This document shows, piece by piece, positions 17,709-63,978 of a stretch of DNA of 64,000 nucleotides. The notes beneath the pieces are model-generated. The model saw only the letters and a program-made list of their open reading frames with translations. It was not told the DNA's origin and did not search any database. Made by a program: the position numbers and the translations under genes. Within the stretch, counting starts at the first letter, position 1; each line of letters begins with the position of its first letter. The stretch comes from Rhodothermales bacterium (GTDB lineage Bacteria; Bacteroidota; Rhodothermia; Rhodothermales; JANQRZ01): NCBI GenBank assembly GCA_038232935.1, contig JBBSMX010000004.1:2512-66511 (forward strand), in the 5' to 3' direction.

Positions 17709-17758
17709 GGCCTACATATTCCTGATCATTCTACTCGCATTACACAGGTCAGCTTACG

Positions 17759-45917: not shown

Positions 45918-45922
45918 GCCCT

Positions 45923-47326: not shown

Positions 47327-47510
47327 TCGCGTCCTCATCGGATCGCCCGATGTGAAATTCGACGAATCAGCGTAGGTCCGGCAACAAGACGAAATGGCGT
47401 TGGTACATAATGATGCACATGCAAACGGTGCGCCGTCCGCTGGTCTCTCTTCCCACCTCACGCCGCCGGACGGGACCTATCTCCTCTCTTTTCTCCATTC
47501 GTACGGCACC

Positions 47511-48014
47511 ATGGAACTCAACACGCTCCACGACCTCTACCTCCAGCAACTCAAGGACCTCTACAGCGCCGAAACCCAACTCGTCGATGCCCTGCCGGAC
47601 ATGGCGAAGGCGGCCCACCACCCGGACCTGAAGCAGGCCTTCAGCGAGCACCTCCAGCAGACCAAGCAGCAGAAGAGCCGGCTCGACAAGGTCGGCCAGT
47701 CCCTCGGCGAAGACCTCTCCGGTGAGACCTGCCAGGCCATGAAGGGCCTCATTAAGGAAGGCAAGGAGATGATCAAGCTGAAGGCCGCCGAGCCCGTGAA
47801 GGACGCCGGTCTCATCGCCGCCGCCCAGCGCGTCGAGCATTACGAGATCGCCGGCTACGGCACCGTGTGCACCTTCGCCGAGATGCTCGGCCGCCACGAC
47901 GACCTCCATCTCCTCAAGGAGACTCTCTCCGAAGAAAAGAACACGGATGAGAAGCTGAGCAAGATCGCGAAGCGGACGGTGGATCCCGCAGCGATGCAGG
48001 GAGCCCCGGCGTAA
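47511..48014 (+). CDS. DUF892 (YciE/YciF ferritin-like) stress protein
   Basis: MELNTLHDLYLQQLKDLYSAETQLVDALPDMAKAA..AAQRVEHYEIAGYGT is a typical DUF892 pattern. Confidence 0.85.
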   Translation: MELNTLHDLYLQQLKDLYSAETQLVDALPDMAKAAHHPDLKQAFSEHLQQTKQQKSRLDKVGQSLGEDLSGETCQAMKGLIKEGKEMIKLKAAEPVKDAGLIAAAQRVEHYEIAGYGTVCTFAEMLGRHDDLHLLKETLSEEKNTDEKLSKIAKRTVDPAAMQGAPA

Positions 48015-48027
48015 CGCCAGCTTCGGT

Positions 48028-48062
48028 GGCGGGGGCTTGCATGGCGAGCCCCCGCCTTCTTC
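48028..48062 (+). terminator. Probable intrinsic terminator after the DUF892 gene
   Basis: 10-bp stem ggcgggggct / agcccccgcc, 9-nt loop, then ttcttcccc. Confidence 0.5.
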
Positions 48063-48147
48063 CCCTCTAAGGCGCTTTGGAGATGTACGAGACTTTCAGG
48101 AAGGAGGACGACAGCATCGAGGTCGTCCTCGAGCAGAGGACGGTCTG

Positions 48148-49179
48148 ATGAAGAAGACGCTGCTGACGCTCGGCGGCATCGCCGGAGCAATCGGGCTGAG
48201 CCGGGTCGTGCGGACGCAGCACCGGATCCCGTTGCGGGGCCGGACCGTGCTGATCTCCGGTGGGTCGCGCGGGCTCGGGCTCGTCCTCGCCCGACGGTTC
48301 GCCCAGGAGGAAGCCCGCCTCGTCCTGTTGGCCCGGACCGCCGACGATCTCGACCGAGCCCGCGATGACCTGGAGTTACGCGGGGCCGATGTGCTCACCA
48401 TCCCGTGCGATGTCCGGGATCGGGAGGCCGTGGAGGCCGCTGTCGCCCAAGCGGTCAAGCTGTTCGGCCGGCTGGACGTGCTCGTCCACAACGCCGGGGT
48501 GATCGAGGTCGGCCCGGCCGAGCACATGGACGAGCGGGATTACCGCGAGGCGCTCGACGTGCATTTCTGGGGCGCGTACTATCTCACCGAAGCCGCGCGG
48601 CCCCACCTCCGGCGCGATAGGGAAGGGCGGATCGCGTACGTCGCCTCCATCGGCGGGCGCGTAGCCGTGCCCCACCTCGCGCCCTACGCTGTGAGCAAGT
48701 TCGCGCTCGTCGGCTTCGCCGATGCGATGCGGGCGGAGCTGGCCGCCGAGGGCATCCGCGTCACGACGATCACGCCGGGGCTCATGCGGACGGGCTCCCA
48801 CGTCAACGCTACCGTCAAAGGCCGGCACGAGGAGGAGTTCGCGTGGTTCGCCATCTCCGACGCCAACCTCCTCCTCTCCGCTGACGCCGACCGCGCCGCC
48901 CGGCAGATCGTCGAGGCCGTCCGCTACGGCGACCCGGCGCTCACGATCACACTCCCGGCCAAGCTCCTTGCCGCGCTCGACGGCGCGTTCCCCGGCCTCG
49001 TCGGCACGGCGATGAAGGGGGCGAGCCGCCTGCTTCCCGGCCTCGCCGGCCCGTCGGGCGACCGGCGCCAGACGGGGTGGGAGAGCTTCTCCGCCGCCGC
49101 GCCCTCCGTCCTCACCCGCCCTGCCGACGAGGCGATCTCCGCGAACAACGAGTTGCGCGGCCACGAGAACATCGTGTGA
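48148..49179 (+). CDS. SDR-family oxidoreductase with N-terminal membrane anchor
   Basis: MKKTLLTLGGIAGAIGL.. anchor. TVLISGGSRGLG Rossmann motif. YAVSKFALVGF catalytic YxxxK. Confidence 0.85.
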   Translation: MKKTLLTLGGIAGAIGLSRVVRTQHRIPLRGRTVLISGGSRGLGLVLARRFAQEEARLVLLARTADDLDRARDDLELRGADVLTIPCDVRDREAVEAAVAQAVKLFGRLDVLVHNAGVIEVGPAEHMDERDYREALDVHFWGAYYLTEAARPHLRRDREGRIAYVASIGGRVAVPHLAPYAVSKFALVGFADAMRAELAAEGIRVTTITPGLMRTGSHVNATVKGRHEEEFAWFAISDANLLLSADADRAARQIVEAVRYGDPALTITLPAKLLAALDGAFPGLVGTAMKGASRLLPGLAGPSGDRRQTGWESFSAAAPSVLTRPADEAISANNELRGHENIV

Positions 49180-49328
49180 TGCGAAGCCGAGCGATCACGA
49201 CGGGGCGGGCGACCACGAGACGAGGGTCGTCTCTACGGGTGTAGAAAATTGGGTGTAGGGGCAAGCCCTCGTGGCTGCCCGACCCCGCCTCTGCCGCCGC
49301 GGATTGCCCGGCCCCCCACGCCCTCGTC

Positions 49329-49401
49329 TCAGAACCGGTAGCGGAGCTGGAGGGCGAGGTCGCGCACGCGGCTGCCCTCGACCTCGTTGAGCCCGCTGCT
49401 G
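49329..49401 (-). pseudogene. Remnant A: truncated copy of the 3' end (stop codon included) of the HhH/OM gene at 61708
   Basis: 73 nt beginning tcagaa.. align with 61708-61780 with only 3 mismatches by eye. It would encode ..SGLNEVEGSRVRDLALQLRYRF*. No upstream ORF. Confidence 0.8.
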
Positions 49402-49511
49402 CGGCGCAGCGACGAGACTAACCCATCAATAATTTGCATGTCGCTCTAAAATTTCATACAGTGCAGGAACGGCTACCGCCTACGAACAGTCTGTGCCACC
49501 CAAACCGAACG

Positions 49512-52188
49512 GTGCCATGCGTACTCTCTCTCTCTCTCTGCGCACTGAGTTTAGCCCTGATAGCGAGCGCTGACTATTCACGAGCGCAAGACCCCTCCGG
49601 TGACTGGTGTGCTTTCGAGCCCCCAGCCACCGAGCCCGCTGTCAATTACCTCCTCGCGCCGACCGGGCCGATCCGCGTCCCCGTCGTCTTCCACGTCTTC
49701 TACAACGATGCAGGGGTGGGGAACCACGATCTCGCCGACCTCCAGACGCAGATCGACACGATGAACATGGCGCTCGACGGCAGCGACATCACTCTCTTCC
49801 TACGGGGCGTGAACCGCGTCGAGGACAACGCACTCTTCGAGAACATCGACTCGACCGGTGCCAACGGGAGCGGAGCCAAGCAGACGCACTACGTCGATTC
49901 GGGCCGCGTGCTCAACGTGTACCTCGGCCATATTCCGGGTAGCACCGGCGGCTATGCTCAGATGCCGGTCCCTGGTTCCGGCGGTATTGGCGACGCCGTC
50001 ACCGTCGAGACCTTCACGATTCCAGGTAACCCCTGGCGGATGGGGAGCCAGCCGGACGAAGGGGGCACCTTCGTCCACGAGGTCGGCCACTGGCTCGGTC
50101 TCTACCATACGTTCCAAGGCTCTCTCCTCGTGTCCGGTCGCGACGTACCCCGCCTGCCTCAGCAACGGCGACCAAGTCTGTGACACGCCCCCTGACTCGT
50201 TAGATTTGAATCAACCCCCCAACATCTGTTACGCGCAGAACTCCTGCCCCGACATGCTCGGACCTGGCGGGACCGACGCTGACGACGACATCTACAACTA
50301 CATGGACTACAGCCTCAACTTCTGCTGGCGGCACTTCACGCCGGGGCAGTTCGAGCGGATGCGGGCGCTCGTGGGGCAGTACCGGGCGGGGCTCGTGAAC
50401 GGTGACGGGGCGACGGTCCGCTACGACCGGAGCATCACCGTCGCGTCGAACCAGAATTGGGCGTGGTACGGGGCCAACGTTCGATTCCCCGCCTCCGAGG
50501 GGTACACCGTCTACGGAGGGCTCACCTCCTCCAACGCTACGTTTGGTCCTACTGATGCCGCACAAGGTTGGGACGGGTTCCGCTTCGAGAGCGGGGCTTC
50601 CGGGTCCCTCTCCGGGCCATCCGCTGGGTCCACCGTTGAGGGGGTGAAGCAATACGGCGGTGCGGCTCTCTACGTTCTGAACGCCGACCTCACCCTCGAC
50701 GGTGCCACCATCACGGGGAGCACGCTCGGGAGCGGAGCGGCCGGTGTCTACGCTACCGGCTCCAGCGCCTACGTCCATGTCAAGAACGGTAGCTTCATCA
50801 AGAGCAATGAGGGGCGTGGGATCTATGCCGGCAATGGGGCTGATGTCTATGTCGAGGAGAGCTTCATCGAACAGAATAACGGGGATGGGGTCTACGCAGG
50901 CAACGCCGACGTCTTCCTCTACGACAGCGAGGTCAAGAGCAACGGCGGGTACGGCACGCGCGCCCACTATTTCGGCAACGTCGTATTCGGCATCCCCTTC
51001 AGCGGCTACCCCACGCCGAACCAGAACAACCTCCTGACGCAGAACTCCACCGGCACGCTCGCCGCTACGAGCTACGCCGACCTCAGCGCCGGGTCTACTC
51101 CCGGCGATTTCTCCCAGAACGACTTCTACCGGCAATCCTCCCAGCTCCACGCCTACGCCCGAACCTCCTCCGACGTCCGCGCCCAGTGTGACTTCTGGGG
51201 GAGTACGAGCGGTCCGAACCTCTCCTACGTGAACCTCGATGGGAGCAGTACCTTCACGTACGTGCCCTACCTGATCCAATCAGGGGGGAACTGCGGGACA
51301 GTCAACGCCCGCTCCAGTGAAACCCCCGGTGTAGCCAGCGTAAATGGAATAGAAGGCGATGAGACTCCGTCTGGTTTCACACCGCTGGTGTGGCAAGCAC
51401 TTCAGGCAGCCGATGCCGGAGACTTCGCCACCGCCGCCGGCCTACTCCGGCGGGCTATCCGGGGAGCCGAAAGCCAGGCAGACCGGGAGCGAGCCTATGC
51501 TGTGGTCACCCGGCTCATGAGGCGGGTGGAGCCTGAACTGCTCGTCGCCTTCCTCGAAGGGCGGAGAAGCCGGGTGACGGAGCGGCCGTGGGTACTCTTG
51601 GCGCTGGCCGAGGCACACCTCGCGGCCGGGGATGCGGAGGCTGCATCGGCTGCTGCCTCGGCGCTTACCGAGGAGAACCCCGAGGGAGCGCACGGCCTCT
51701 TTGGGTACGCCATCCTGCACAGGCTGGCACTCACGTCAGGGGACGTGTCGGCGGCTGAGGCGGTGCTCACATCGGCAGAAGTCGGGTGGCCGGACGCGGA
51801 GGTGACGGCGCTCATGCAATCCGAGCACGCGGCGTGGCTGGGCGAGGAACCGGCTGGCGGCGCGCGCTCGGCACCGACTCCTCTCGCGGCGGTAGCGGCG
51901 GTGGCTCCCGAGGCATACGCCCTCGAAGCGCCGTATCCGAATCCGACCGATGGGAGCGTGACGGTACCATTCAGGCTGGCAGACGAAGCTGAGGTGACGG
52001 TCGAGGTGCTCGACGTGCTCGGTCGCCGCGTAGCGGTGCTCCTACGTGAGCGGCTTCCGGCCGGGCAGCACGAGGCCGTACTCGACGCTGCACACTTCGC
52101 GCCGGGGCTCTACCTGCTCCGCGCTGAGGTACAGACGGACGCAGGCGACGTGCGTTTACTTCAGCAGCAACTCACCGTCGTCCATTGA
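49512..52188 (+). pseudogene. M43 (cytophagalysin/pappalysin-type) zinc metallopeptidase with beta-helix repeats, TPR-like region and T9SS CTD; frameshifted
   Basis: The frame-3 ORF carries the signal peptide and HEVGHWLGLYHTFQG, then runs to a stop at 50183. The family continuation ..CPVATYPACLSNGDQVCDTPPDS..NYMDYS..FTPGQFERM is in frame 1. The shift lies within 50121-50130 (tctctcctcg). C-terminal T9SS CTD YPNPTDGSVTVPF..LYLLRAEV... Confidence 0.75.
49524..49539 (+). repeat. (CT)8 dinucleotide tract in the signal-peptide coding region of the M43 gene
   Basis: ctctctctctctctct read directly from the sequence. An ATG at 49517 is out of frame with the ORF by the equivalent of one CT unit. Confidence 0.95.
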
Positions 52189-52259
52189 ATACGCTAGAGG
52201 CGGAGGAGGCTTGTGCGAGCGGGCCCTCTCCGCTTCTGCGTTTAGTCCGGAGGTCGGCA

Positions 52260-53564
52260 ATGAAACGCGCTGTGTTGTTTGCAACGATGATTGGCTTCTG
52301 CGCCACGGCTTCTCAAGTTCCGGCTCAGCCTCTGGGTAGGCTCAATTGGGAACCCGTTGGCACGCTTGCTTATGCTGAAGGGCTATTTACGGCCGGCGAT
52401 ACAGCCGTCTATGCTGCTTCTGGTACCAATGGATTCTTCGTCATCCGGCAGGAGGAGCAGGATTGGACGCCGATTGTAGCGCCTCATGCCCAAGATGTAT
52501 GGGTCTCATCTGAAGGGTACCTTTTCGCCTTCAATACGGTCGATACAGATCGCTCGACGGATGGAGGGCAGACGTGGCGCGAAGTTCTCAGCGGTAGTGA
52601 GACCGTCCCCTTCCTCACGCCTTCGAGAACCCTCTTGGCGGGCGAGGGCAATTGCTGCGGCCTCGCCCGCTCCACCGACGCCGGGGCGCGCTGGACGACG
52701 ATCGAGATGGATGAGTTCGTCGGGTTCGGCCTCATCCCCTATGGCTTCGCCGCCCTTCCACCTTCGGAGACGCTCCCCCGGGACCGCATCGTCGGGGCAG
52801 GGCGCGGCGGTATCGTTTACAGCGACGACGACGGGCTCACGTGGGAGCCGACGGCGCTCGTTCAGAACTTCAACATCGTCGCGCGCTCCATCGTCCGCGC
52901 TCCCAACGGGTTCTTCTACGCCGCCGTCAACGGCCTCTTCGCCAGCGCGTTCGGCGGCGTCTTCGAGAGCGCGGACGGGGCAACGTGGGAGCTGGCCGGG
53001 ACGATCCCCGGCGAGTGGAGCTACGGCTATCAACTTCTCTCTACCCCGGACGGTGCGCTCTACGCCATCGCCGTCGGGCAGCCCGAGGGGGGTGAGGTGT
53101 ACCGGTCGCTCGACGCGGGGCGGACGTGGAAAGAGACGGGGCCGGTGTGGACGGAGCGGAATGTGCGGCTCAACGAGCTGGTGGTGGGGCCGGGCGGGCA
53201 CCTCTGGGCCGGGACCACCGGGGTCGGAGCGGGGGCCACGGGCGGCGTGTTTCGGACGGTGGGGCCGGTGTTCACGGTGGCGGCGGAGGCCCCTGCTGCG
53301 GCGTCCTCGGGCCTCCGGCTCTATGCCTACCCCAACCCGTCGAGCGGAGGCGCGAACGTGGCGCTGACCCTCCCGGCCCCGTCGGTCGTCCGCCTCGCCG
53401 TCTACGACGCGCTCGGGCGCGAGGTGGCCGTCCTCCACGACGGCCTGCTTGGTGCAGGCGACCACCGGTTCTCCGTAGGCTCCGGCCTCGCACCAGGCAT
53501 CTACGTCCTCCGTGCCACGGCGGGTGGGGCCTCGGTCTCGGCTCACGTCACCCTCATCCGCTGA
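52260..53564 (+). CDS. Asp-box (BNR) beta-propeller protein with T9SS CTD
   Basis: Signal peptide MKRAVLFATMIGFCATASQVPAQ. Asp-boxes STDGGQTW, STDAGARW, SDDDGLTW, SADGATW, SLDAGRTW. CTD YPNPSSGGANVALTL..IYVLRATA..TLIR. Confidence 0.85.
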   Translation: MKRAVLFATMIGFCATASQVPAQPLGRLNWEPVGTLAYAEGLFTAGDTAVYAASGTNGFFVIRQEEQDWTPIVAPHAQDVWVSSEGYLFAFNTVDTDRSTDGGQTWREVLSGSETVPFLTPSRTLLAGEGNCCGLARSTDAGARWTTIEMDEFVGFGLIPYGFAALPPSETLPRDRIVGAGRGGIVYSDDDGLTWEPTALVQNFNIVARSIVRAPNGFFYAAVNGLFASAFGGVFESADGATWELAGTIPGEWSYGYQLLSTPDGALYAIAVGQPEGGEVYRSLDAGRTWKETGPVWTERNVRLNELVVGPGGHLWAGTTGVGAGATGGVFRTVGPVFTVAAEAPAAASSGLRLYAYPNPSSGGANVALTLPAPSVVRLAVYDALGREVAVLHDGLLGAGDHRFSVGSGLAPGIYVLRATAGGASVSAHVTLIR

Positions 53565-53625
53565 GTTGGGCACCGTGCGTGTGAGGCTCGCTCAACGAGC
53601 TCTCCACTTACCTGATCGAAACGCC

Positions 53626-54537
53626 ATGAAACGACTTGCTACGATCTGCCCACTCCTGCTGCCCTTTGTCCTCGCGGCCCCGACCTACGCGCAGGAGGAG
53701 ATGCCCGACACGACGAGCGCCGAGCGCTACTTCCCCCTCGAGGGGGGGAACGTGTGGGAGTACGAGGGCGAGAACACCCTGTTTGGAACGCGAGAAGACC
53801 AGCGGCGGGCGGTGACGGGGGATACCCTCGTCGGCGACGTCCGCTACTTCCGCTACGAACAGCAGCTCGTGGATTCCACCGGGGCACCGGCCGGGCCGCT
53901 CCGCGTGGCCTACGTCCGCTTCGACACCCTCTCCACCGAGGTCCGGACCCTGGGCGGGAGTGGAGGCACCTACGGCGTTCCGTATGACTTCCCGCTCGGG
54001 GCACCCTTCGGCAGTAGCCCGGAGTACGACGGCTGTACCACGGATGTGCGCGGGGGGTACGGAATGACGGTCGAGATCCGTGACGACGCCGTCGTCACGT
54101 CCGTGAAGGTCGTGGACTTGGGAAATTGCGAGTATCGTAGCACCTTCGCGGCCGGCATCGGTTTCGTGGACTACAATGCGCTCGGCGGTTACCTCGACCT
54201 CGTCTACGCCCGCGTCGGCGGCATCGAATACGGCGAGCCCATCGCCGTAGCCGCTGAAGCTGCACCGGACACCATCGAGCCTCCTGCCTTCGAAGTCTAT
54301 CCGAACCCCGCGCGCCGGTCGGTGACGGTTCTGTACGAAACAGCCGTGCCCGGAAACGTCCGGCTGACGGCGACAGACGCGCTCGGACGGGCCGTAGCCG
54401 TGCTGGAGGACGGGTTCAAACCGGCGGGGCACCACGAAGCGCGCCTCGACGTAGCGGGCCTGGTGCCGGGGGTGTACGTGCTCCGGCTGACTACGGCTAC
54501 AGGCAAGAGAACGCAAAAACTGACGGTGCTGCGGTAG
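53626..54537 (+). CDS. Secreted protein of unknown function with T9SS CTD
   Basis: Signal peptide MKRLATICPLLLPFVLAAPTYAQ. CTD VYPNPARRSVTVLYE..VYVLRLTTATGKRTQKLTVLR. Confidence 0.8.
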   Translation: MKRLATICPLLLPFVLAAPTYAQEEMPDTTSAERYFPLEGGNVWEYEGENTLFGTREDQRRAVTGDTLVGDVRYFRYEQQLVDSTGAPAGPLRVAYVRFDTLSTEVRTLGGSGGTYGVPYDFPLGAPFGSSPEYDGCTTDVRGGYGMTVEIRDDAVVTSVKVVDLGNCEYRSTFAAGIGFVDYNALGGYLDLVYARVGGIEYGEPIAVAAEAAPDTIEPPAFEVYPNPARRSVTVLYETAVPGNVRLTATDALGRAVAVLEDGFKPAGHHEARLDVAGLVPGVYVLRLTTATGKRTQKLTVLR

Positions 54538-54560
54538 GGGCGAGCGCGCTGCGCCCCTAC
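54534..54560. terminator. Palindromic hairpin at the convergence point of + and - strand genes
   Basis: Perfect 9-bp stem gtaggggcg / cgcccctac with a 9-nt loop. It overlaps the TAG stop of the gene ending at 54537. Confidence 0.45.
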
Positions 54561-54584
54561 GTCGTTTACGGCGGCGTGTCCCCC

Positions 54585-54745
54585 TCAGAATCGATAGCGG
54601 AGCTGGAGGGCGAGGTCGCGCACGCGGCTGCCCTCGATCTCGTTCAGCCCGCTGCTGACGGTGCGGCGGTCCTCGAAGCGCGTCTCGGCCAGCTTCAGCC
54701 GGAGGTCGAGGCCCTCGAACCGGCCGCCCGGCTTGAAGGTCAGCA
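54585..54745 (-). pseudogene. Remnant B: truncated copy of the 3' end (stop codon included) of the HhH/OM gene at 61708
   Basis: About 160 nt beginning tcagaa.. align with 61708-61868 at roughly 9 of 10 positions by eye. It would encode ..FEGLDLRLKLAETRFEDRRTVSSGLNEIEGSRVRDLALQLRYRF*. It has no start and abuts the stop of the gene ending at 54755. Confidence 0.8.
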
Positions 54746-54754
54746 CCCCGGCTG

Positions 54755-56362
54755 TCATCGTACCATCGTGACCCGCTCGGTTAAGTGCCTCTCCCCGACT
54801 TCCGCACGGACGAGGTAAAGCCCACTTGGGAGGCCCGCCCCGTCGAGCGCGAACTCGTGCTTACCCGGCGCGAGCCACCCCTCATGCAACACTCCCACCT
54901 CACGCCCGAGCACATCGTAAACCGCAACCCCCACGTCCGATGCCGCGTCGAGCGTGAGCACGACGGTCGCCGCCCCCGCCGACGGGTTGGGGTACGCCGA
55001 GAGCGACACGGCTTCTGGCTCTGTCGCCTGCTCCTCCGCACTCGTCCCCTGTGTCACCGTCAGCGTGAGCGGGACCTCGACGGCCGCGCCCGTTCCGGCG
55101 TCGAACGCCTGCAACGCCGAGGTGTACATGCCCACCGCCCGAGCGCCCGCCCGGAACGTCAGCACGACTTCCATGCTGTCGCCCGGCGCGAGCGTCCCAT
55201 CCCACGCTCCCTCCGGCCCGGCGTCCGAGCCCACCACGAGCCACGACGGCGGGAGCGGGTGCGGGCGGACGCCGACGATGCCGGTGTGCTCGAAGTTCGT
55301 GAACGTCATGTACATCACGCCGTTGGGGTCGATCCTGCTGCGGAGCGGGTTCGCCCGTGGGCCGAAGCCGGCGTTCTCGAAGAGCACAGCCGGCACCGGC
55401 GTCTCTAGCTCCTCGCCCTCGCTGGTGCCCCAGCGGTCCACCACGGCGATGCGGTTGAAGCCGGGCGCGCCCTGGGGGAAGGCGGCGTACTCGATGCGGA
55501 CGCCTTCGGCTCCGCCCTCCGTGCCGCCGTGGGCGTCGGGGGTGCCGATGAGCGCGGGCGGGGGATACGGCTCGGGGCGGAGGGGGTAGCCTTCGGCGAG
55601 GGTGCCCGTGCGGTCCACCGCCCATATTGCCCGCGTCTCCCCGTTGACCCCGACGAAGTAAAAGAGGTCGGTGGCCGCGTCGTAGCTCGGGCCACCGGCG
55701 ACGAAGTCGTCCACAGGCCCCTCCGGGGGGGCGAGTTCGATGCGGCGGCCGGTGGCGACCCCGTCGAGGTCGCCTTCGAGGAGAAGCACGCGGAACGTCA
55801 CACGCTGCCCGTTGATCGAGCGGTTCTCCCCGTTCATCCACCACAGCGTCCCGCTCTCGGTGTCGTAGCCCACGCCCCACGTACCGGGGAAGGGGTCGAG
55901 TTCGGGGACGGTGGGGTGCTCGAACGAGCGGAGGAGCGCGAGGTTGGGCGTGAACTCGAACGTCCGGTGCAGCCCGCTCACCTCGGCGGAGAAGAGACGG
56001 CCCTCCGGCGTCATCGCAATGGCGGCGGGTCCCCACCCGCCCCCGAGGTCGTCCTCGTCGAAGCGGTAGAGCACCTCGCCGTAGGCCCCGCACGGCGCGC
56101 CCCCACCGGCCGCACCCCCCGCAAGCCGGGCTTCTCCTTCGGTTCGCTGCAACGGGCGGTCGAAGGAGACGCAGAAGGTGAGCGCTTCGCTCCCCGCGTT
56201 CGTCAGCGCCACCGTCCGCGTGATCGTTTCGTACCGCGCGACGTCTACACTCACGCTCGACGGCTCGATCACGAGTTGTGCCCGCGCGGGGGCGGCGCTC
56301 ATCAACACCACGCCGAGCGCCACCCCCGCTGCGACGCAGCGTAGAGTCAGCGTCTCCATCAT
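54755..56362 (-). CDS. Secreted protein of unknown function with T9SS CTD (tandem paralogue 1)
   Basis: Signal peptide ..VVLMSAAPARAQ. 535 aa, colinear similarity to the next gene. CTD YPNPSAGAATVVLTL..LYLVRAEVGERHLTERVTMVR. Confidence 0.8.
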   Translation of the reverse strand: MMETLTLRCVAAGVALGVVLMSAAPARAQLVIEPSSVSVDVARYETITRTVALTNAGSEALTFCVSFDRPLQRTEGEARLAGGAAGGGAPCGAYGEVLYRFDEDDLGGGWGPAAIAMTPEGRLFSAEVSGLHRTFEFTPNLALLRSFEHPTVPELDPFPGTWGVGYDTESGTLWWMNGENRSINGQRVTFRVLLLEGDLDGVATGRRIELAPPEGPVDDFVAGGPSYDAATDLFYFVGVNGETRAIWAVDRTGTLAEGYPLRPEPYPPPALIGTPDAHGGTEGGAEGVRIEYAAFPQGAPGFNRIAVVDRWGTSEGEELETPVPAVLFENAGFGPRANPLRSRIDPNGVMYMTFTNFEHTGIVGVRPHPLPPSWLVVGSDAGPEGAWDGTLAPGDSMEVVLTFRAGARAVGMYTSALQAFDAGTGAAVEVPLTLTVTQGTSAEEQATEPEAVSLSAYPNPSAGAATVVLTLDAASDVGVAVYDVLGREVGVLHEGWLAPGKHEFALDGAGLPSGLYLVRAEVGERHLTERVTMVR

Positions 56363-56364
56363 CG

Positions 56365-57975
56365 CTACCTCAAGAGGGTGATCCGCCGTGTGAGCACTTC
56401 GCCCGGCGTCTCTGCCCGGAGGAGATAGACACCGGAGGGGAGGCTACGACCACCGAAGCGGAAGCGGTGCGTGCCTGCCTCGCGTGGCCCCTCAGCAAGA
56501 ACAGCCACGCGGCGGCCGAGCACGTCGTAGACCGTGAGACGAACTTCGGCATCGGTCGGCAGCGTGAGGACTACGGTCGCGGCTCCCGCCGACGGGTTCG
56601 GGTACGCCGCCAGCGACACGGCTTCCGGCACGCCGGCCCCGTCCTCCGCGTCCGTCCCCCGCGTCACCGTCAGCGTGAGCGGGACTTCCACCGCCTCGCC
56701 CGTCGCTGCATCGAACGCCTGCAACGCCGAGGTGTACGTCCCCACCTCGCGTGCGCCTGCCCGGAACGTGAGCACGACCTGCCGACTCTCGTCCGGCGCA
56801 AGCGTCCCGTCCCACGCCGCCTCCGGCCCGGCGTCCGAGTCTACGACGAGCCACGACGGCGGCAACGGGTGCGGACGGATGCCGACGATGCCGGTGTGGT
56901 CAAAGTTCGTGAACGTCATGTACATCACACCGTTGGGGTCCGTCCGGCTCCGCAGCGGGTTTCCATTCGGACCGGCCCCGCCTGCTTCGAGGAGCACCGA
57001 CGGCACCGGCGTCTCGAGCGCCTCGCCCTCGCTGTTGCCCCAGCGGTCTACGACGGCGATCCGGTCGTTCCCCGGCGCGCCCAGCGGGAACGCCCCGTAC
57101 TCGACCCGCACGCCTTCGGGTCCGCCCTCGGCCCCACCGTGAGCGTCGATGATGTTGAAGACGCCCTCGGAGTAGGGCTCCGGGCGGACGGGGTAGCCCT
57201 CGGGCACGGTGCCCGCGCGGTCCACGGCCCAGAGCCTCCAGTTGTCGGGGTTCTGACGGTCGCCGAGTATCCCGAGGAAGTAGAAGCGGTCGGTGGCTAC
57301 GTCGTAGGCGAGGCCGCCGGGGTCGAAAGAGTCGATGGGGTCGTCGGGCGGGGCGACCTGGATGCGGCGGCCGGTGGGGACGCCGTCGAGGTCGCCTTCG
57401 AGGAGGAGCACGCGGCGGGTGCCGCCCTGACTTCCGCCCTGTCGCTCGAAGTTCATCCACCACAGCGTCCCGCTCTCGGTGTCGTAGCCCACGCCCCGTG
57501 TAGCGGGAAACGGCACGAGTTCGGCGACGGTGGGATGCTCAAAGGAGCGGATGAGCGTGAGGTCGTGCGTGAACTCGAACGTCCGGTGGAGAAAGCTCAC
57601 CTCGGAGGTGAAGAGCCGACCCTCCGGCGTCATCACGACGCCAACGGGTCCCCACCCCGCGCCAAAGTCCTCCTCGTCGAAGTAGTGGAGCACTTCGCCG
57701 TATTCACCGCAGGGTGTACCACCGCTGGCTGCGCCCTCCACGAGCCGAGTCTCTCCTTCGGCCCGCTGCAACGGCCGCTCGAAGGAGACACAGAAGGTGA
57801 GCGGCTCCGCCCCCGCATTCGTCAGCGTCACCGTCTGCGTGACCGTCTCCTCCTGCGGCACCATCACCTCGATGCTCTGGGGTTCGATCACGAGTTGCGC
57901 CCACGCGGGGACGGCACTCAGCAAGACCACGCCGAACACCGCCCCCGCCGCGACGCGATACGAGGTCGTCGTCAT
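56365..57975 (-). CDS. Secreted protein of unknown function with T9SS CTD (tandem paralogue 2)
   Basis: 536 aa. Signal peptide ..VVLLSAVPAWAQ. Shares blocks with paralogue 1 (LTFCVSF(D/E)RPLQR, HRTFEFT, GVGYDTESGTLWWMN, DRWG(T/N)SEGE). Its CTD is near-identical to that of the S8 peptidase. Confidence 0.8.
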   Translation of the reverse strand: MTTTSYRVAAGAVFGVVLLSAVPAWAQLVIEPQSIEVMVPQEETVTQTVTLTNAGAEPLTFCVSFERPLQRAEGETRLVEGAASGGTPCGEYGEVLHYFDEEDFGAGWGPVGVVMTPEGRLFTSEVSFLHRTFEFTHDLTLIRSFEHPTVAELVPFPATRGVGYDTESGTLWWMNFERQGGSQGGTRRVLLLEGDLDGVPTGRRIQVAPPDDPIDSFDPGGLAYDVATDRFYFLGILGDRQNPDNWRLWAVDRAGTVPEGYPVRPEPYSEGVFNIIDAHGGAEGGPEGVRVEYGAFPLGAPGNDRIAVVDRWGNSEGEALETPVPSVLLEAGGAGPNGNPLRSRTDPNGVMYMTFTNFDHTGIVGIRPHPLPPSWLVVDSDAGPEAAWDGTLAPDESRQVVLTFRAGAREVGTYTSALQAFDAATGEAVEVPLTLTVTRGTDAEDGAGVPEAVSLAAYPNPSAGAATVVLTLPTDAEVRLTVYDVLGRRVAVLAEGPREAGTHRFRFGGRSLPSGVYLLRAETPGEVLTRRITLLR

Positions 57976-57977
57976 CG

Positions 57978-60900
57978 CTACCTCAGCAGGGTAATCCGGC
58001 GCGTGAGCACCTCGCCCGGCGTCTCCGCTCGGAGGAGGTACACGCCGGAGGGGAGGCTACGGCCACCGAAGCCGAAGCGATGCGTCCCGGCCTCGCGCGG
58101 TCCCTCGGCGAGCGTCGCCACCCGGCGGCCGAGCACGTCGTAGACCGTGAGGTGCACCTCACCGTCGCGCGGCAGCGTGAGAGCCACCGTTGCGGCTCCC
58201 GCCGACGGATTCGGATATGCCGCCAGCGACACCCCCGCCGCATCAGGCAGGACAGCATCGGTTCCCCGAGCGAGTGCTTCCAGCCCAGCCCCCCGCGCGC
58301 GCTCACCGCTTCCGGCACGCTCGGCGTAGACCGAAGCGAGGTCGAGCAGCACCTCGTCCAGCCCGCTCTCCGGCTCCCCGTTCGCCGCCTCCTCAGCCGC
58401 TACGGCTGCCACGAGCGCCGCGGCCTCGGCGTAGCGCCCCGCCCCCGCTTCGAGGTGGGCTTCCACGAGCGAGAGCACCCGGCCGACCCCGCCGCCCTCC
58501 ACCGGCAGCGCGAGGAGCTCCCGCGCGCCCTCGTGCTCGCCCCGCGTCAGAAGCTCGACGGCCTCGACTTCGAGCGCGGCCTCGGCCGTCGCCCGCAGCA
58601 GAGCCGGGAGGTTCGGATTGTTCAGCCGGGCGCGGAGGCTGCGGAGCTGCCCCCACGAGGCGGCGCGCTCGCCCGTCTCGTCGTCCCGGTCGCGGCGGTG
58701 GAGCGCCGCGAGGGTACGGACGAGACCGGGGGCGACCTCCGCCGCCGGGTCCGCCACGAGCGCCGCACGGGTCGCCCGGATCAACGCACGGAGTGCTGCA
58801 CGCTCGCCGCGCTGCTGCTCCGTGCCGGAGGCATCACGTCCTGAGAGTGCGAGCGTGCCGGTGCTCGTCCGGCTCGCCGTGAGGCATTCGGGCGGCGAAA
58901 CCGTGTAGTCGCAGTCCGAGGCCACCCCCACCTTGATGACGCCGCCGGTGAGGGCACCGGCGGGCGGTCCGCCCACATGGTCCCAGTACGTGTTCCCCGC
59001 GTAGATCGTCGCCCCGGAGTTGTTGGCGATGAAGACGCCGCTGTCGTCGTAGATCGAGTTGCGCCCGTCGTCGTCAGCGGTCCCCAGAGACCCGATGAAG
59101 GCCGTCCCGCCGGAGGCGATGGCGACCTCGCTCCCCGTGTTGCCCGCCACGCGGTTCACGCCGTAGGGCTGAGGGTTATTCGATTTCATCTGGAGATCGC
59201 CGCCCGCGAGGACCCAGATCCCGGCCTTGTTGGTGCCGAAGCCGCCCGCCACCCCATTCCCTTCGAGGATGTTGTGGTCGAACGGGTCCACGGTCGCGTC
59301 GGAGAGGCGGAGGCCGGAGAGCCCGTTCCCGCTCATCACCGTCTCCTGAATAACCGCGTCGGCCGAGATCGCGTAGACGCCGTTGCCGGTGTTGCCGTTC
59401 ACGAACGAGTCGAGAAGGGTGAACGTGCTGCGGCACGCGCCGAAGCAGAAGACGCCCCCGCCAATCGTCTCGGGAATCCCGCTCCGAATGCCGGTCCCGT
59501 TCTGCTCCACCGTCGAGCCAGCGATGACCGTGCCGTCGTTGGAGAGCACGTCGATACCAACGGTATTGTCGCGGATCGTCGAGTTCGCAATCGTGGCCGT
59601 GCCGGGGTCGTAGACCGTGACCCCCACCGTCGCGTGCTCGATAGTGGCGTCATCGAGGTCGAGCGTGCCATCTGCGGCAATACCTCCCCACCCCTGCCCC
59701 GCGTCGCGCTCGGTGAACGTGGTACCGTCCGCGTTGAGCGTGCCCTCCACGATGAGGCGGGTGCCCGGTGCGAACGCGAGCGTGACATCTCCCAGGTCCC
59801 ACGTCTCCCCGGCCGGAATCGTCACATCCTGGGCGAGCGTGCCGCCGTAGAGCTCCAGCGTCTGCACGAGCGCCTGATACGCGTTCACTCGACCGTTCCC
59901 CGCCCACCGTGGGTGGTAGCTGGGGTCGTAGTCCGCCGTCTGCTTGATGAGATCCGTGACCTGGGTCACGGAGAGATCCGGGTTGATCGCTAGGATGAGT
60001 GTGGCGATACCTGCGACCTGTGGGGCCGCGGCGGAGGTCTTGCTAAAGTTAGAGGTGTAACCGTCATCGACAGTTATCGTGGTAACAAAGAGCAGGCCCC
60101 CACTGCTTGGAGCGACTACGTCAGCCCTTCGCTCCCCGCTCGGAAAGACTTGGGGAGAATATGGGCCGCGGTTGTTCTCGCTCGTTACGCCCCCGACGGC
60201 AATCACGCCAGGCAGCAAAGCAGGGAACGCTATGAAGTCGGGTCCAGCCGTCTCCCCGTTGTTGCCTGCTGCAGCTACCATCACGATTCCTTTTCCGCCG
60301 CGCCCGTCTTCGAGCGCCCGTTCAAAGGCCGCTGCAACGTCGTCGTTATAGACACCAGGGAATCTGGTGCCCCAACTGTGGTTCATGACATCTGCCCCTC
60401 GCACACGCGCAGTGTCAATAGCGGCGGCAATTTCCCTGAAAGGAGCGAAAACGTCGCTCTGGATAGCAATCGGGAGGATTCGTGTCTTCTCGGATACGCC
60501 CCGCACCCCAATAGTGTTGAAGTCGGCTGCGGCGAGACCGGCAACATTTTGACCGTGGACGGCCCCTTTCCTCGGGGAGCCGTCACCGCCGCCTAAGGCC
60601 GGGGCCGTCCAGCCGTTTGCGAGCCGCTGTCCAGGTTCGAAGTCCATATGGTCTTCCACCCCGGAGTCGACGATCGCGGCCGTTACGGAGGCGCTTCCCG
60701 TCGTGATGCCCCAGGCGAGGTCGGCGTCGATGTCTACATCAGGGGTAATCCCGGACTGACCCGTGTTCTCGAGGTGCCACTGGTTGGGATAGAGGGGGTC
60801 GTCGATACTCCCTCCGCTGAAACTGGCGCTCGGCATGACGGGGCTGAGGCTCGGCGCGGCCAGGGAGAACGAGGGTTCGCTCTGGAGCGAGAGGTCAGCG

Positions 60901-61475
60901 TAGGCGTCGGGCACAGCCCATTCGGTCAGGCTATCGGTGTAGTAGGCGTTCGCCACCTCCAGCGTGCTGTACGCCGCACCGGCCGGCACGCCGAGGGTGT
61001 AGACCGAGGAGCCGTCAGCGAACGTGCCGGAGTCGACGGTCTGGACGCCGTACTGGGCGTTGAGCCCGGACACCTGAGCCGCCGTCACGCCGGGGCCGAA
61101 CCCGGCGCGGACGTAGTCGGTGATCGTGAACCGCATGGTGCCGGTGCCCACGTAATAATCCGGGTGGTAGCGGGCTACCGATGTACTAGCGTCTAGTAGA
61201 GATTCGGCCTCGCCCTCCGTCAGCCCGCTCGCCGCGTCCACGACGTAGAAGTCTCGCGGGAGCACTTCGAGAACGGAGAAGTCCGATCCCAGCGCCTGCG
61301 CGAGGGCGGTCTCATCCACACCGGATGCCGCCTCCACGACGTACTGCCCATCTATAGGCGTGAGGGCAATCTGCCCTCCGCCCGACCAGTAATACTGCGC
61401 GAGGGGAGTCGGGGCGGCGGCGCAGAGGAGGAACGCGGTCAGAATGTATAGTAACGGTCGGGGGGGGCGCTTCAT
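57978..61475 (-). CDS. S8 subtilisin-like serine peptidase with beta-helix region, TPR-like region and T9SS CTD
   Basis: Signal peptide MKRPPRPLLYILTAFLLCAAAPTPLAQ. Catalytic triad blocks AIVDSGV (Asp), HGQNVAGLAAA (His), KTSAAAPQVAGIA (Ser). CTD YPNPSAGAATVALTL..VYLLRAETPGEVLTRRITLLR. The ORF is open to 61568. Confidence 0.88.
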   Translation of the reverse strand: MKRPPRPLLYILTAFLLCAAAPTPLAQYYWSGGGQIALTPIDGQYVVEAASGVDETALAQALGSDFSVLEVLPRDFYVVDAASGLTEGEAESLLDASTSVARYHPDYYVGTGTMRFTITDYVRAGFGPGVTAAQVSGLNAQYGVQTVDSGTFADGSSVYTLGVPAGAAYSTLEVANAYYTDSLTEWAVPDAYADLSLQSEPSFSLAAPSLSPVMPSASFSGGSIDDPLYPNQWHLENTGQSGITPDVDIDADLAWGITTGSASVTAAIVDSGVEDHMDFEPGQRLANGWTAPALGGGDGSPRKGAVHGQNVAGLAAADFNTIGVRGVSEKTRILPIAIQSDVFAPFREIAAAIDTARVRGADVMNHSWGTRFPGVYNDDVAAAFERALEDGRGGKGIVMVAAAGNNGETAGPDFIAFPALLPGVIAVGGVTSENNRGPYSPQVFPSGERRADVVAPSSGGLLFVTTITVDDGYTSNFSKTSAAAPQVAGIATLILAINPDLSVTQVTDLIKQTADYDPSYHPRWAGNGRVNAYQALVQTLELYGGTLAQDVTIPAGETWDLGDVTLAFAPGTRLIVEGTLNADGTTFTERDAGQGWGGIAADGTLDLDDATIEHATVGVTVYDPGTATIANSTIRDNTVGIDVLSNDGTVIAGSTVEQNGTGIRSGIPETIGGGVFCFGACRSTFTLLDSFVNGNTGNGVYAISADAVIQETVMSGNGLSGLRLSDATVDPFDHNILEGNGVAGGFGTNKAGIWVLAGGDLQMKSNNPQPYGVNRVAGNTGSEVAIASGGTAFIGSLGTADDDGRNSIYDDSGVFIANNSGATIYAGNTYWDHVGGPPAGALTGGVIKVGVASDCDYTVSPPECLTASRTSTGTLALSGRDASGTEQQRGERAALRALIRATRAALVADPAAEVAPGLVRTLAALHRRDRDDETGERAASWGQLRSLRARLNNPNLPALLRATAEAALEVEAVELLTRGEHEGARELLALPVEGGGVGRVLSLVEAHLEAGAGRYAEAAALVAAVAAEEAANGEPESGLDEVLLDLASVYAERAGSGERARGAGLEALARGTDAVLPDAAGVSLAAYPNPSAGAATVALTLPRDGEVHLTVYDVLGRRVATLAEGPREAGTHRFGFGGRSLPSGVYLLRAETPGEVLTRRITLLR

Positions 61476-61577
61476 GAGGGTACCTCGTTGGGCTGATGGA
61501 CGAAGCGGCGTAGGGCTATGGCGCGGGCTTCGGTGCAAGTGCCACTTCGGGTGTCGTGGGTCATTCAATCGTTCTTC

Positions 61578-61606
61578 ACACTACGCAGAAAACCTGACGA
61601 AGTCAA
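61578..61606 (-). promoter_or_regulatory. Candidate sigma-70-like promoter for the S8 peptidase operon
   Basis: The minus strand reads TTGACT-N17-TAGTGT, about 100 nt upstream of the ATG at 61475. The promoter consensus of this lineage is unknown. Confidence 0.3.
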
Positions 61607-61707
61607 ATACAGGACAACAGGAGCCGTAGTTGTGACCGGAACAGTCCACCCTCGGCGGCCTACTCCGTGCGCCCGGCAGATTGCTGAGGCTGCCAGATAT
61701 ACGCTCC

Positions 61708-63879
61708 TCAGAAGCGGTAGCGGAGCTGGAGGGCGAGGTCGCGCACGCGGCTGCCCTCGACCTCGCCGAGCCCGCTGCTGATCGTGCGGCGGTCCTCGAA
61801 CCGCGTCTCGGCCAGCTTCACCCGGAGGTCGAGTCCCTCGAACCGGCCGCGTGGCTTGAACGTCACCATCGCGTAGGCCCGCGTGCCGCGCCCGTAGAGC
61901 AGTGTGTTGGCGAAGACGCCGAGCAGGTCGTTCTCGAACTGGTAGAGCCGGGCGTCGTAACTCTCGGTGTCGAAGAACGTGAGGCGCGTGTCGAGCCGGA
62001 GTGTTTGGGTGAACTGCCAGCGGACGTCCTGGAAGAGGAGCACGCCGGTCTCGACCGGCCCGTCGTCCTCCCGGTAGCGGGAGCCCTCGACGCGGGTGCG
62101 GAAGCGGAGGTCGCGACTGGCTTCGTACTCGCCCTGCACGCGGAGGCTCTGCCGTGTCTCCGGCACGAGGCCCGAGAGCACGGCTCCCGTCGGCTGCGCG
62201 AAGTCGGCGCTGGTCTCGCGCGTTTCGGTGCGGCCCTGCACGTAGAGCGTGATCCACCGGCGCGGCTTGTGCTCGACGTAGAGGAGCGCTTCGTGGCCCG
62301 TCGAGGGGCGGGGGATCGTGAAGCGCACCCACGGGAAGCGGTACTGGTCGAAGTAGCCCGAGACGACCCACGCCTTGGCAGGACGGAGGCCGAGGCCGAG
62401 GTAAAGCCCCGTCTCGTTCTGACTTACGCCGTTCCGCTCGCCGAAGGCGTAGCCGTGGAGCGAGACGAAGTCGCGCGGGTAATGGCGGGCGACCACGACG
62501 GCTTCGAGCCGGCCCAAACTCGCCTCGGCTCCGGCGAGGCCCGCGAACACACCGTTCGTCTGCGCGACCTCGCCGAAGAGCTGGAAGTCGCTGAGGAACA
62601 CGCTCGCGTACGCGCTCGCCGTCGTCACGTCGTCGCCGCTGAAATCGAACCGCTCGTAGGGGCGAGGACCGGGCGCGAGCGGGTTGTCGAACCGGGCGTT
62701 GTAGCCGACCACGCCGACCGTCGCGCGGTCGAGCCGGTACTCGATGCCGCCGCCGAAGAGGGTTTCGCCGAGGGCATCTTTCTTCGCGATCTCGCCGGGG
62801 GTGCGGTGGAGGCCGTCGGCGGCGAGGCCGGCCACGGTCGCATCCGTGATCGGGGCCTCGACGTCGGTCGTGTCCACGTCATTGAACGAGGCGTCGAGCG
62901 TGCGGCGGCTGCCGAAGGCCGTGGCGTAGAGGGCAGGCGTGACGGCGACCGTCGCGGCGGCCCCGCGGAAGAACTGGTTCTCGTCGGTCGAACCGTAGGG
63001 CCGGATCCCGCGCCCGCGCTTGACGAGCGGCCGGACCGACTCCCTCCCTTTGCCGAAGCCAGCGGCGCGCCAGAGCGCGAGCCCCTGCCCGAACTCGGCC
63101 ACGTAGTCTCCCACGACGAGCGACTCGATCCGGCCGATGCGGAGGGCGGCGAGGTGGAAAGAGGCGAAGTCGTAGCCGTAGCTGCCGATGCCGGGGTCGA
63201 ACGTGAAGGGCTCGCCGGGGTCTTTTTCGAGGGTGACGTTCGCGCTGAGGTTGCGGCGGAAGCTGGCTCGGACGCGGGTGTAGATCCGCTCGGGCGAGCC
63301 GGCGTAGCGCGTCGGCGCGTCGGGGTCATCGGCGAGGCTGTCGGGCAGGGCGTCGTACCCCCGGCCGAGGTCGAGGCGGCGCGTGACGCGCTGGAGCACT
63401 TCGACGCGGGCGTTCGCGCGGACCTCAGCGAAGCTCGGGACCTCGGGGTAGCGCGACGCCTCGGGCGCGGTGCGCGGGAGCGGCAGGCCGATGGAGAGGT
63501 ACGGCCGGGCTTCGAGGTAGGTGTTCGGGTCGATGCCCTCGACGGCGCGCAGCTCCGGGATCGAGCGGAAGAGCCCGTTCTCCTCGCGGAAGCGGACGAT
63601 GTCGCGGGCGATGAGGGGCGAAAACGAGGGGACCTGCGCCAGATCTTCGGCCGAGGCGCGGTTGACGTCGAGCGGGTTCTCGCGGAGGTCTTCGAGCAGC
63701 TCCAGCAGTTCGGTCGGGTCGCCGGAGATCTCGTCGTCGGAGAGGTTTTCCAGTACGGCCTCCTCCGTCTGATCCGTGTCGGTGGTATCGGCCGGGACCT
63801 CCTGCGCGAGCACGGCCGGCGCGAGGAGGAAGAGGAGTAGAGGGAGAGCGGGGGAAAGGAAGGGGGGGAGGGGACGCAT
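61708..63879 (-). CDS. Helix-hairpin-helix (ComEA-like) domain protein with large OM beta-barrel-like body
   Basis: Signal peptide MRPLPPFLSPALPLLLFLLAPAVLAQ. HhH region LDVNRASAEDLAQVPSFSPLIARDIVRFREENGLFRSIPELRAVEGI. Beta-rich body ending ..LQLRYRF. The ORF is open to 63975. Confidence 0.8.
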   Translation of the reverse strand: MRPLPPFLSPALPLLLFLLAPAVLAQEVPADTTDTDQTEEAVLENLSDDEISGDPTELLELLEDLRENPLDVNRASAEDLAQVPSFSPLIARDIVRFREENGLFRSIPELRAVEGIDPNTYLEARPYLSIGLPLPRTAPEASRYPEVPSFAEVRANARVEVLQRVTRRLDLGRGYDALPDSLADDPDAPTRYAGSPERIYTRVRASFRRNLSANVTLEKDPGEPFTFDPGIGSYGYDFASFHLAALRIGRIESLVVGDYVAEFGQGLALWRAAGFGKGRESVRPLVKRGRGIRPYGSTDENQFFRGAAATVAVTPALYATAFGSRRTLDASFNDVDTTDVEAPITDATVAGLAADGLHRTPGEIAKKDALGETLFGGGIEYRLDRATVGVVGYNARFDNPLAPGPRPYERFDFSGDDVTTASAYASVFLSDFQLFGEVAQTNGVFAGLAGAEASLGRLEAVVVARHYPRDFVSLHGYAFGERNGVSQNETGLYLGLGLRPAKAWVVSGYFDQYRFPWVRFTIPRPSTGHEALLYVEHKPRRWITLYVQGRTETRETSADFAQPTGAVLSGLVPETRQSLRVQGEYEASRDLRFRTRVEGSRYREDDGPVETGVLLFQDVRWQFTQTLRLDTRLTFFDTESYDARLYQFENDLLGVFANTLLYGRGTRAYAMVTFKPRGRFEGLDLRVKLAETRFEDRRTISSGLGEVEGSRVRDLALQLRYRF

Positions 63880-63978
63880 CGGCGAGCGGAGCAGGGAGGA
63901 GGGCGTTTCCCGTTCCCTCGTTCGCCCGCTCTCCCAATCTCCCATTCTCCCTGTCACCCTTTCTTTCATTCTCAAACC

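Follow-up and report, generated by a model that had tools for sequence, protein, structure and literature searches.

Direct copies of an outer-membrane gene end bracket blocks of type IX secretion cargo genes in a Rhodothermales genome

Introduction

Genomic islands flanked by repeated partial 3′ ends of tRNA genes are known from bacteria such as Prochlorococcus, often with no integrase left. In integron arrays, and in Xer-dependent pdif modules and integrative mobile elements exploiting Xer recombination (IMEX), small cassettes without a recombinase gene, often encoding toxin-antitoxin systems, lie between repeated recombination sites. The 3′ end of a protein gene can also be a target. Integrative and conjugative elements (ICEs), integrative and mobilizable elements (IMEs), and cis-mobilizable elements (CIMEs) accrete in tandem at such sites, as with the ICESt1/ICESt3-related elements at fda of Streptococcus thermophilus, and in serial accretion the newest insert adjoins the gene, with the older ends lying farther out (PMC5704250). 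A single crossover of re-circularized DNA carrying a gene end, in this case the lacZ end in Escherichia coli, duplicates part of the gene, and homology-facilitated illegitimate recombination leads to an insertion plus a deletion (PMC3240628). Here, we describe a protein-coding gene end in a 64,000-nucleotide stretch of DNA from a Rhodothermales bacterium (GenBank assembly GCA_038232935.1, contig JBBSMX010000004.1; the whole analyzed stretch is called the window below). Three direct copies of the 3′ end of a gene for a ComEA-like outer-membrane barrel protein, hereafter the target gene, bracket two blocks of genes for substrates of the type IX secretion system (T9SS).

The footprint is of a known kind, in which inserts accrete in tandem at the 3′ end of a gene, and resembles the repeated tRNA ends of islands. 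Its novelty lies in the target gene, which encodes a ComEA-like outer-membrane barrel in Rhodothermales, in a cargo of T9SS substrates and one toxin-antitoxin pair, in the recurrence of the arrangement in two species, and in the lack of recombinase genes in the inserts, the window, and 12 related loci. As in ICE/IME/CIME accretion, an array of inserts is split by direct repeats of the target 3′ end, the gene is intact, and the newest insert would be the one at the gene. The window and a second locus, L012, both have flanking 3′-end repeats and a restored open reading frame (ORF), the site is empty in relatives, and CIMEs likewise carry no integration genes. Unlike in ICE/IME/CIME accretion, no integrase-bearing partner element occupies the site in the 12 relatives, the inserts in the window and L012 are 0.75–7 kb with no backbone and no shared arms, and the repeats in the window are long (74–163 nt) and have diverged like alleles. 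Campbell integration at the E. coli lacZ end similarly flanks an insert with a gene-end duplication and needs no dedicated recombinase (PMC3240628), but it was a laboratory case with a plasmid, whereas the events here would be natural, serial, and recurrent in two species. The locus resembles tRNA-end islands in that several direct 3′-end copies would mark repeated insertion at one hotspot; it differs in having an outer-membrane protein gene as its target and repeats that consist of coding sequence plus stop codon. Small cassettes without a recombinase gene between repeated sequences also recall integron and pdif arrays. The repeats here are, however, gene-end copies without an attC-like fold, there is no intI, and no dif-like 11-6-11 site was recognized in a reading made without a reference dif motif of the clade.

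Results and Discussion

Copies of the target gene 3′ end

The target gene (61708–63969, minus strand) encodes a protein of 753 aa, P0001. Its N terminus bears a ComEA-like helix-hairpin-helix domain (Pfam HHH_3, 5.7e-16; ComEA matches in PDB), followed by a large outer-membrane β-barrel that ends in LQLRYRF directly before the stop codon. An AlphaFold model (mean predicted local distance difference test score, 73.5) has helices at residues 85–157 and then ~25 β-strands, and Foldseek matched it to the barrels MtrB, BtuB, and AlgE (E ~1e-9). All 479 homologs are from Rhodothermales, with lengths of ~715–750 aa and the closest being 87% identical, and the gene is single-copy and widespread in that group. 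It appears to be uncharacterized and possibly acts in DNA uptake at the outer membrane. We also note the fusion of a ComEA-like DNA-binding domain to a ~25-strand barrel, and that dprA starts the conserved gene block in most relatives.

The 3′ end in use by the target gene (copy 3; 61706–61873, minus strand; residues 700–753) codes, in the AlphaFold model, for part of the strand at residues 694–704, the strands at 713–724 and 741–752, and the C-terminal Phe. An earlier model-made reading of the window, based on sequence only, had reported that this end recurs over ~160 nt at 54585–54745, matching at about nine of 10 positions, and over 73 nt at 49329–49401 with three mismatches, and that a 43-nt core is common to all three copies. 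BLASTN of the gene end against the window, which that reading had suggested, returned both displaced copies as significant matches and agreed closely with its description. Copy 2 (54583–54750, minus strand), a displaced 3′ end of 163–168 nt, matches the intact gene end over 163 nt with 90.8% identity (E 2.5e-61), and in a repeat search it pairs with 61706–61873 over 168 nt with 90% identity. Copy 1 (49328–49401, minus strand), a displaced 3′ end of 74 nt, is 95.9% identical to the gene end over its full length with three mismatches (E 2.7e-29), differs from copy 3 at 3 of 69 positions, and codes for the final β-strand and the preceding loop (last 23 codons). The repeat search also recovered the 43-nt core, TAGCGGAGCTGGAGGGCGAGGTCGCGCACGCGGCTGCCCTCGA, without differences among copies 1, 2, and 3.

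All three copies are direct, lie on the minus strand, and terminate in TGA, with stops at 61708, 54585, and 49329, and the similarity between them breaks off 1–2 nt beyond the stop codon. A degenerate 39-nt gene-end pattern had three exact matches in the window versus none in 100 shuffles, and the only long direct repeats in the window were the gene-end family and two sets of gene paralogs.

The copies delimit two inserts, each of which begins directly after a stop codon. Insert X2 (54751–61705, ~7.0 kb, minus strand) has the same orientation as the target gene. By Pfam, it encodes an S8 peptidase with a β-helix and a T9SS C-terminal sorting domain (CTD) (57978–61568) and two paralogous CTD proteins of 535/536 aa (56365–57975 and 54755–56362), all on the minus strand. 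Insert X1 (49402–54582, ~5.2 kb, plus strand) is convergent with the target gene and encodes, on its plus strand, an M43 peptidase (about 49517/49560–52188, frameshifted near 50114–50125), a BNR/Asp-box CTD protein (52185–53564, by Pfam), and a CTD protein of 341 aa (53512–54537, with a Pfam Por_Secre_tail match). Both segments and their cargo had been delimited in much the same way by the sequence-only reading, and its count of six T9SS cargo genes also held, as Por_Secre_tail was matched by six of the six genes between the copies at 22–37 bits, two of them under the Pfam cut-off of 27.

An independent case in locus L012

A third duplication was found in locus L012 (assembly GCA_038746285.1), whose target gene is 79% identical to that of the window. 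There, a 749-bp cassette (12146–12943) for a 76-aa protein (antitoxin) and a PIN_3-domain toxin lies between two copies of a 47-nt gene-end repeat (98% identity, E 3e-20), with a convergent CTD gene beyond. The downstream copy terminates in GGCGGCTCGTAG and not in GGCGGCTAG, and the fragment has an ATG 1 nt past the stop codon of the PIN gene. Each of the three duplications (47, 74, and 163 nt) takes in the last 47 nt of the ~2.2-kb target gene.

The related records are metagenome assemblies, and in one of them, L016 (7737–7947), a 55-nt gene-end repeat with 100% identity flanks a run of N. We excluded this repeat as a scaffolding artifact, and such overlaps call for caution in automated surveys. 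An assembly chimera, in which strain variants with different cassettes were joined through their common gene end, could in principle have produced the window copies as well. This we consider highly improbable, as the window copies have diverged (90–96% identity), are unequal in length, and lie away from any gap. Their proximal boundaries adjoin unique sequence, with no shared k-mer able to cause a false join, and a like structure is present in the independent assembly of L012.

Conserved upstream genes and a variable downstream slot

We then compared the window with 12 related Rhodothermales loci (L001–L005 and L011–L016 among them); scans of a genome collection and of metagenomes with the gene-end pattern gave only three and two matches, all single-copy, and no population view. 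In most of the 12 loci the upstream order is DprA, a metalloenzyme, an S46 peptidase, HEAT-PPIase, DUF4835, a 275-aa protein, and the target gene, and the DUF4835 and 275-aa genes immediately upstream of the target gene are kept in 12 of 12.

Downstream of the target gene, the content varies by subgroup. In L002, a kinase gene follows directly, the two stops overlapping by 4 nt, and this arrangement is an empty site. A 74-aa ORF, then DUF892 and the kinase gene, follow in L005, and a metallophosphatase gene and then DUF892 follow in L014. The target gene is followed in L001 by a broken paralog-like gene, then the toxin-antitoxin pair HepT/MNT and the kinase gene, and in L003 by genes for a 298-aa protein, a 531-aa protein, and an M43 CTD protein. 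Cargo genes, encoding a 124-aa protein and a reprolysin, are also found in L004, L013, L015, and L016, and Omp85 follows in L011. In the window, the distance from the kinase gene to the target gene is 14.4 kb. This distance, together with the differing downstream content, identifies a hotspot for which empty sites exist, and the region downstream of the target gene is a slot for accessory-gene swapping. Both an empty site and different cassettes at the same position, which the sequence-only reading had proposed looking for in relatives, were found. Intact paralogous copies, which would have pointed to simple gene decay, were also looked for. The target gene occurs once per locus in all 12, with no second intact copy, and there was no second C-terminal match in the 12 loci except for L012 and the L016 artifact.

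The cargo families were in part familiar from these relatives. X2 is missing at the same position in 12 of 12, and only L001 has a broken paralog-like gene there; the L001 gene adjoining the target gene is 49% identical to the window paralogs. L003 proteins match the 341-aa protein of the window at 54%, the paralogs at ~50%, and the M43 N terminus at 52%, and copy 2 and the 341-aa gene align collinearly with the gene end and 298-aa gene of L003. The L003 matches of 50–54% indicate that the blocks are made of families normally found beside the target gene. The sequence-only reading had left a choice between a decayed island and a cassette-exchange hotspot. The second wording fits the evidence better. 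The X1 families adjoin the target gene in L003, which has no second copy.

Short predicted proteins from elsewhere provide further leads. P0247, P0251, and P0254 (contigs of 650–1054 bp) and P0249 (a 52-kb contig) are 59–120 aa long, and only their C-terminal 40–95 residues match the barrel family, the preceding residues being unrelated. The sequence composition of P0247, P0251, and P0254 suggests low-GC lineages. All four could represent displaced copies of the gene end from other clades, and we treat them as leads only.

Origin of the displaced copies

Divergence among the copies was examined next. Twelve sites separate copies 2 and 3 over the proximal 105 nt; there, copy 2 has 10 differences to the L001 ortholog and 9 to the L005 ortholog, and copy 3 has 11 to the L001 ortholog. 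Over the distal 51 nt, the window copies show three differences among themselves versus 6–11 to the orthologs. Between copies 2 and 3, the proximal part has diverged by 11.4% and the distal part by 5.9%. This mosaic pattern is compatible with a crossover in the identical core but is suggestive only, not being significant alone (proximal-versus-distal contrast, Fisher P 0.39; 43-nt identical run, P 0.11–0.32).

Synonymous divergence (dS) between copies 2 and 3 is 0.23, with a nonsynonymous-to-synonymous ratio (dN/dS) of 0.28, and dN/dS between copy 2 and the orthologs is 0.14–0.21, as low as between functional genes. Copy 2 is free of frameshifts and stops, and its residues at variable sites are those of orthologs. 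Because its dS is about that of another species' ortholog and its dN/dS is low, copy 2 appears to be a fragment of another, functional allele rather than a decayed in-place duplicate, and one of the two ends, copy 2 or copy 3, probably came from another lineage.

These values bear on a simpler history, in which the gene or gene end was duplicated in tandem in place and the copies are pseudogene remnants left by deletion and decay. Tandem duplication is known at the locus, from a 1.61-kb paralog unit in X2. A second gene copy is, however, found in none of the relatives, and copy 2 has diverged like another species' ortholog yet retains the low dN/dS and intact frame described above. Three separate deletions would, moreover, each have had to spare the last 47–163 nt, and we regard this history as very improbable.

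Low dN/dS would also fit copies that are themselves functional, either as small ORFs for the C-terminal signal peptide of the barrel or as regulatory or terminator modules, and an in-frame ATG does lie just upstream of each fragment (copy 2, L012, and copy 1). Copy 2 constitutes a 57-aa ORF (54585–54758, minus strand), whose ATG overlaps the stop of the upstream paralog (ATGA) and which is recorded as predicted protein P0241 on the same 67,080-bp NCBI contig; copy 1 forms a 36-aa ORF. None of the displaced-copy peptides has a signal peptide, so they would not reach the periplasm, and the fragment peptides have no family match in Pfam. A search with the 57-aa ORF among 5.8 billion proteins returned only itself and no homologous small protein, and a promoter and terminator scan gave no signal above background. 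As a recent origin from a functional allele explains the low dN/dS equally well, we give functional copies hardly any credence.

Separately, a ~160-nt repeat of 90% identity with an identical distal tract resembles the variable repeat/template repeat pair of a diversity-generating retroelement. This candidate was rejected, as only 4 of 17 differences involve A in either copy and the window contains no reverse transcriptase gene.

Serial single-crossover insertion and its alternatives

Any explanation thus has to account for the gene-end repeats and the restored ORF, for sites that are empty or hold other content in relatives, for the L012 case, and for the absence of recombinase genes. We tentatively favor, at somewhat under even confidence, a serial single-crossover insertion by host homologous recombination between related loci. 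X1 would have entered first and X2 next, each through a single (Campbell-type) crossover between the chromosomal 3′ end and incoming DNA with its own copy of that end. Each event would have rebuilt the last β-strand and the C-terminal Phe, so that the gene stayed intact, and would have displaced the prior 3′ end to the far side of the insert, with the order gene(copy 3)-X2-copy 2-X1-copy 1 as the outcome. An insert flanked by direct duplicates of a gene end is the hallmark of a single crossover with a circular molecule carrying that end. The crossovers were most likely made by host homologous recombination on DNA from the same locus of related Rhodothermales. As T9SS-cargo families lie directly after the target gene in relatives, such DNA would naturally carry the gene end; donor-like arrangements of this type are seen in L003 (298-aa, 531-aa, and M43 genes) and L001 (paralog-like gene). 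In this account, we infer the topology (circular or single-crossover), the sequence in which X1 and X2 entered, and the identity of both donor and enzyme.

Host recombination is preferred on these grounds: no recombinase gene was found in the inserts, window, or 12 loci; the inserts are gene-dense, with no shared insert-end sequence and no structured repeat core; and the cargo families are usual neighbors of the target gene in relatives. Using Pfam, we found no integrase, transposase, or reverse transcriptase in the gene-sized ORFs of the window, in line with the remark of the sequence-only reading that no integrase or transposase was visible. Gene tables of the 12 related loci contain no integrase within 10 kb and no transposase. 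The inserts hold no pseudogene remnants of an element backbone, and in X2 the stop of the second paralog is 4 nt from copy 2. Locally aligned, the terminal 150 nt at either end of the three inserts had no sequence in common (all z <2). Folding of the repeats as single strands yielded no hairpin or dyad (z −0.4 to +0.4), and none was seen by eye in the 47-nt core; given these folding values and a window without intI, attC-like sites and an integron array were also ruled out. The gene end had no match in viral contigs with two degenerate patterns, and none in phages and plasmids by tblastn.

The same results weigh on site-specific integration, in which the last ~47 nt would be an attB site and the inserts would be elements that have lost their integrase (CIME-like) or cassettes moved in trans. 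Three insertions with unrelated cargo, in two species, share the same final 47 nt, the repeat can be as short as 47 nt (L012), the GC content at third codon positions (GC3) of X1 is below that of its surroundings, and toxin-antitoxin and secreted-hydrolase cargo is typical of islands. The footprint, too, is that of ICE/IME/CIME accretion at a gene 3′ end (PMC5704250). Set against this are the missing integrase or integrase remnant in the inserts, the window, and the relatives, the insert ends without shared arms, the unstructured repeat, and the lack of the gene end from every viral, phage, or plasmid record searched, and the inserts are too compact for a hidden lost backbone. Site-specific integration ranks second in our view, as possible but rather unlikely. 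Were a trans-acting recombinase responsible, the 47-nt core would be its site. The proposal of the sequence-only reading, serial insertion in the gene 3′ end, gained from the empty site, the different cassettes, and L012, but its analogy with integrase-bearing islands found no support, there being no integrase, no backbone remnants, no shared ends, and no phage, plasmid, or virus with the gene end.

Homology-facilitated illegitimate recombination during DNA uptake would place each joint inside the resident 3′ end by chance. The incoming DNA clearly had a diverged allele of the gene end, and the locus encodes both DprA and a ComEA-like domain. The typical yield of that process is, however, an insertion with a deletion and not a duplication (PMC3240628), and the rough probability that three joints would all fall in the final 163 nt of a gene of 2.2 kb is (163/2200)^3, ~4e-4. 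We consider this route very unlikely.

Once in place, the repeats could act further. If any two copies recombined, X2, X1, or both would be lost precisely and the gene would stay intact, an expectation that follows from the geometry whatever the enzyme. A block between the gene body and a displaced end could also spread by double crossover to relatives that have the gene. A displaced 3′ end might in this way be a portable homology arm, with host recombination alone copying or removing cassettes, for example after DNA uptake, to which the ComEA-like domain of the target gene and the upstream dprA provide a link. We think this improbable as an explanation. If true, it would make the locus a recombinase-independent platform for cassettes of T9SS cargo and toxin-antitoxin genes.

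Serial insertion by host recombination has points against it as well. The acting enzyme is only inferred, and as the search for one covered 64 kb, a distant recombinase is possible. For RecA-dependent recombination, a 47-nt repeat is short, the evidence from the mosaic pattern is weak, and the incoming DNA would first have had to become circular. Altered downstream content is found without a second copy in 10 of 12 relatives, so most slot turnover leaves no such scar, and L003 has an X1-like block without a distal copy. Finally, the contig may derive from a metagenome assembly, and its junctions are known from assembly alone.

If serial insertion by host recombination is correct, the secretome would be re-tooled without dedicated mobile-element machinery, with T9SS protease and toxin-antitoxin blocks added, and removable via the repeats, while a conserved gene is never damaged. 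A protein gene would join the list of 3′-end insertion sites, and the slot would be a hotspot for accessory-gene turnover in Rhodothermales that can be tested by polymerase chain reaction.

Composition and integrity of the cargo genes

GC3 is 0.74–0.79 in X1, 0.91 in the target gene, and 0.86–0.88 in the paralogs. Patchy GC content had been noted in the sequence-only reading, and the dips were confirmed, with minima of 0.57 at 52200–52599 and 0.60 at 60000–60599.

The M43 assignment in X1 stood in part. The zinc-binding motif HEVGHWLGLYH is present at 50076, but Pfam did not detect an M43 domain in the X1 peptidase ORFs, and the gene is split by a frameshift just after HTFQG, near 50114–50125. 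This break coincides with a CTCTCTCC run (50105–50125) just past the zinc-binding motif and is the second of two, the first being at a (CT)8 run (49524–49539) directly after an ATG at 49517 that lies in a different frame from the ORF. Possible explanations for the frame breaks are a pseudogene, sequencing error, or slipped-strand on/off switching.

The paralogs in X2 form a tandem unit of 1.61 kb with 78–83% identity. The repeat unit (54951–58232) spans the CTD-coding region of one gene into the next and so crosses gene borders, meaning that the S8 peptidase and both paralogs end in closely related CTDs; this suggests unequal crossing-over between CTD sequences in X2. The β-helix and CTD that make up the C-terminal half of the S8 peptidase (58026–59831) share 47% identity with the corresponding half of the L003 M43 protein (14882–17575) and less, 35%, with the window's own M43 protein, which points to domain shuffling among cargo genes.

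Flanking genes and the remainder of the window

The right flank (45671–49179, plus strand) was defined by Pfam and by BLASTN synteny to L001, L002, and L005. It comprises a histidine kinase gene (45671–47326) and a DUF892 gene (47394–48014), both conserved beside the target gene in relatives, and an SDR gene (48037–49179) that is found in none of the relatives; all three are on the plus strand.

Beyond the locus, the window contains a type VI secretion system (T6SS) cluster and housekeeping or regulatory genes. The T6SS cluster (1–33500) is complete, has membrane-complex genes, and includes TssK, TssL/DotU, TssM/IcmF, TagF, TssA, TssB/C, Hcp, TssE, TssF, TssG, and ClpV. Genes for two VgrG proteins, PAAR, RHS, DUF2169, an FHA-SLT protein, PP2C, and a Ser/Thr kinase are also present. 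T6SSs of the Bacteroidota type usually lack TssL and TssM, and a proteobacterial-style T6SS in a Rhodothermales genome may merit a look. Within this cluster, the first VgrG-like gene (17726–21190, 1154 aa, Phage_GPD) has a GC content of 0.554 and a GC3 of 0.69, compared with ~0.66–0.71 for its neighbors, which suggests a recently acquired spike or effector module.

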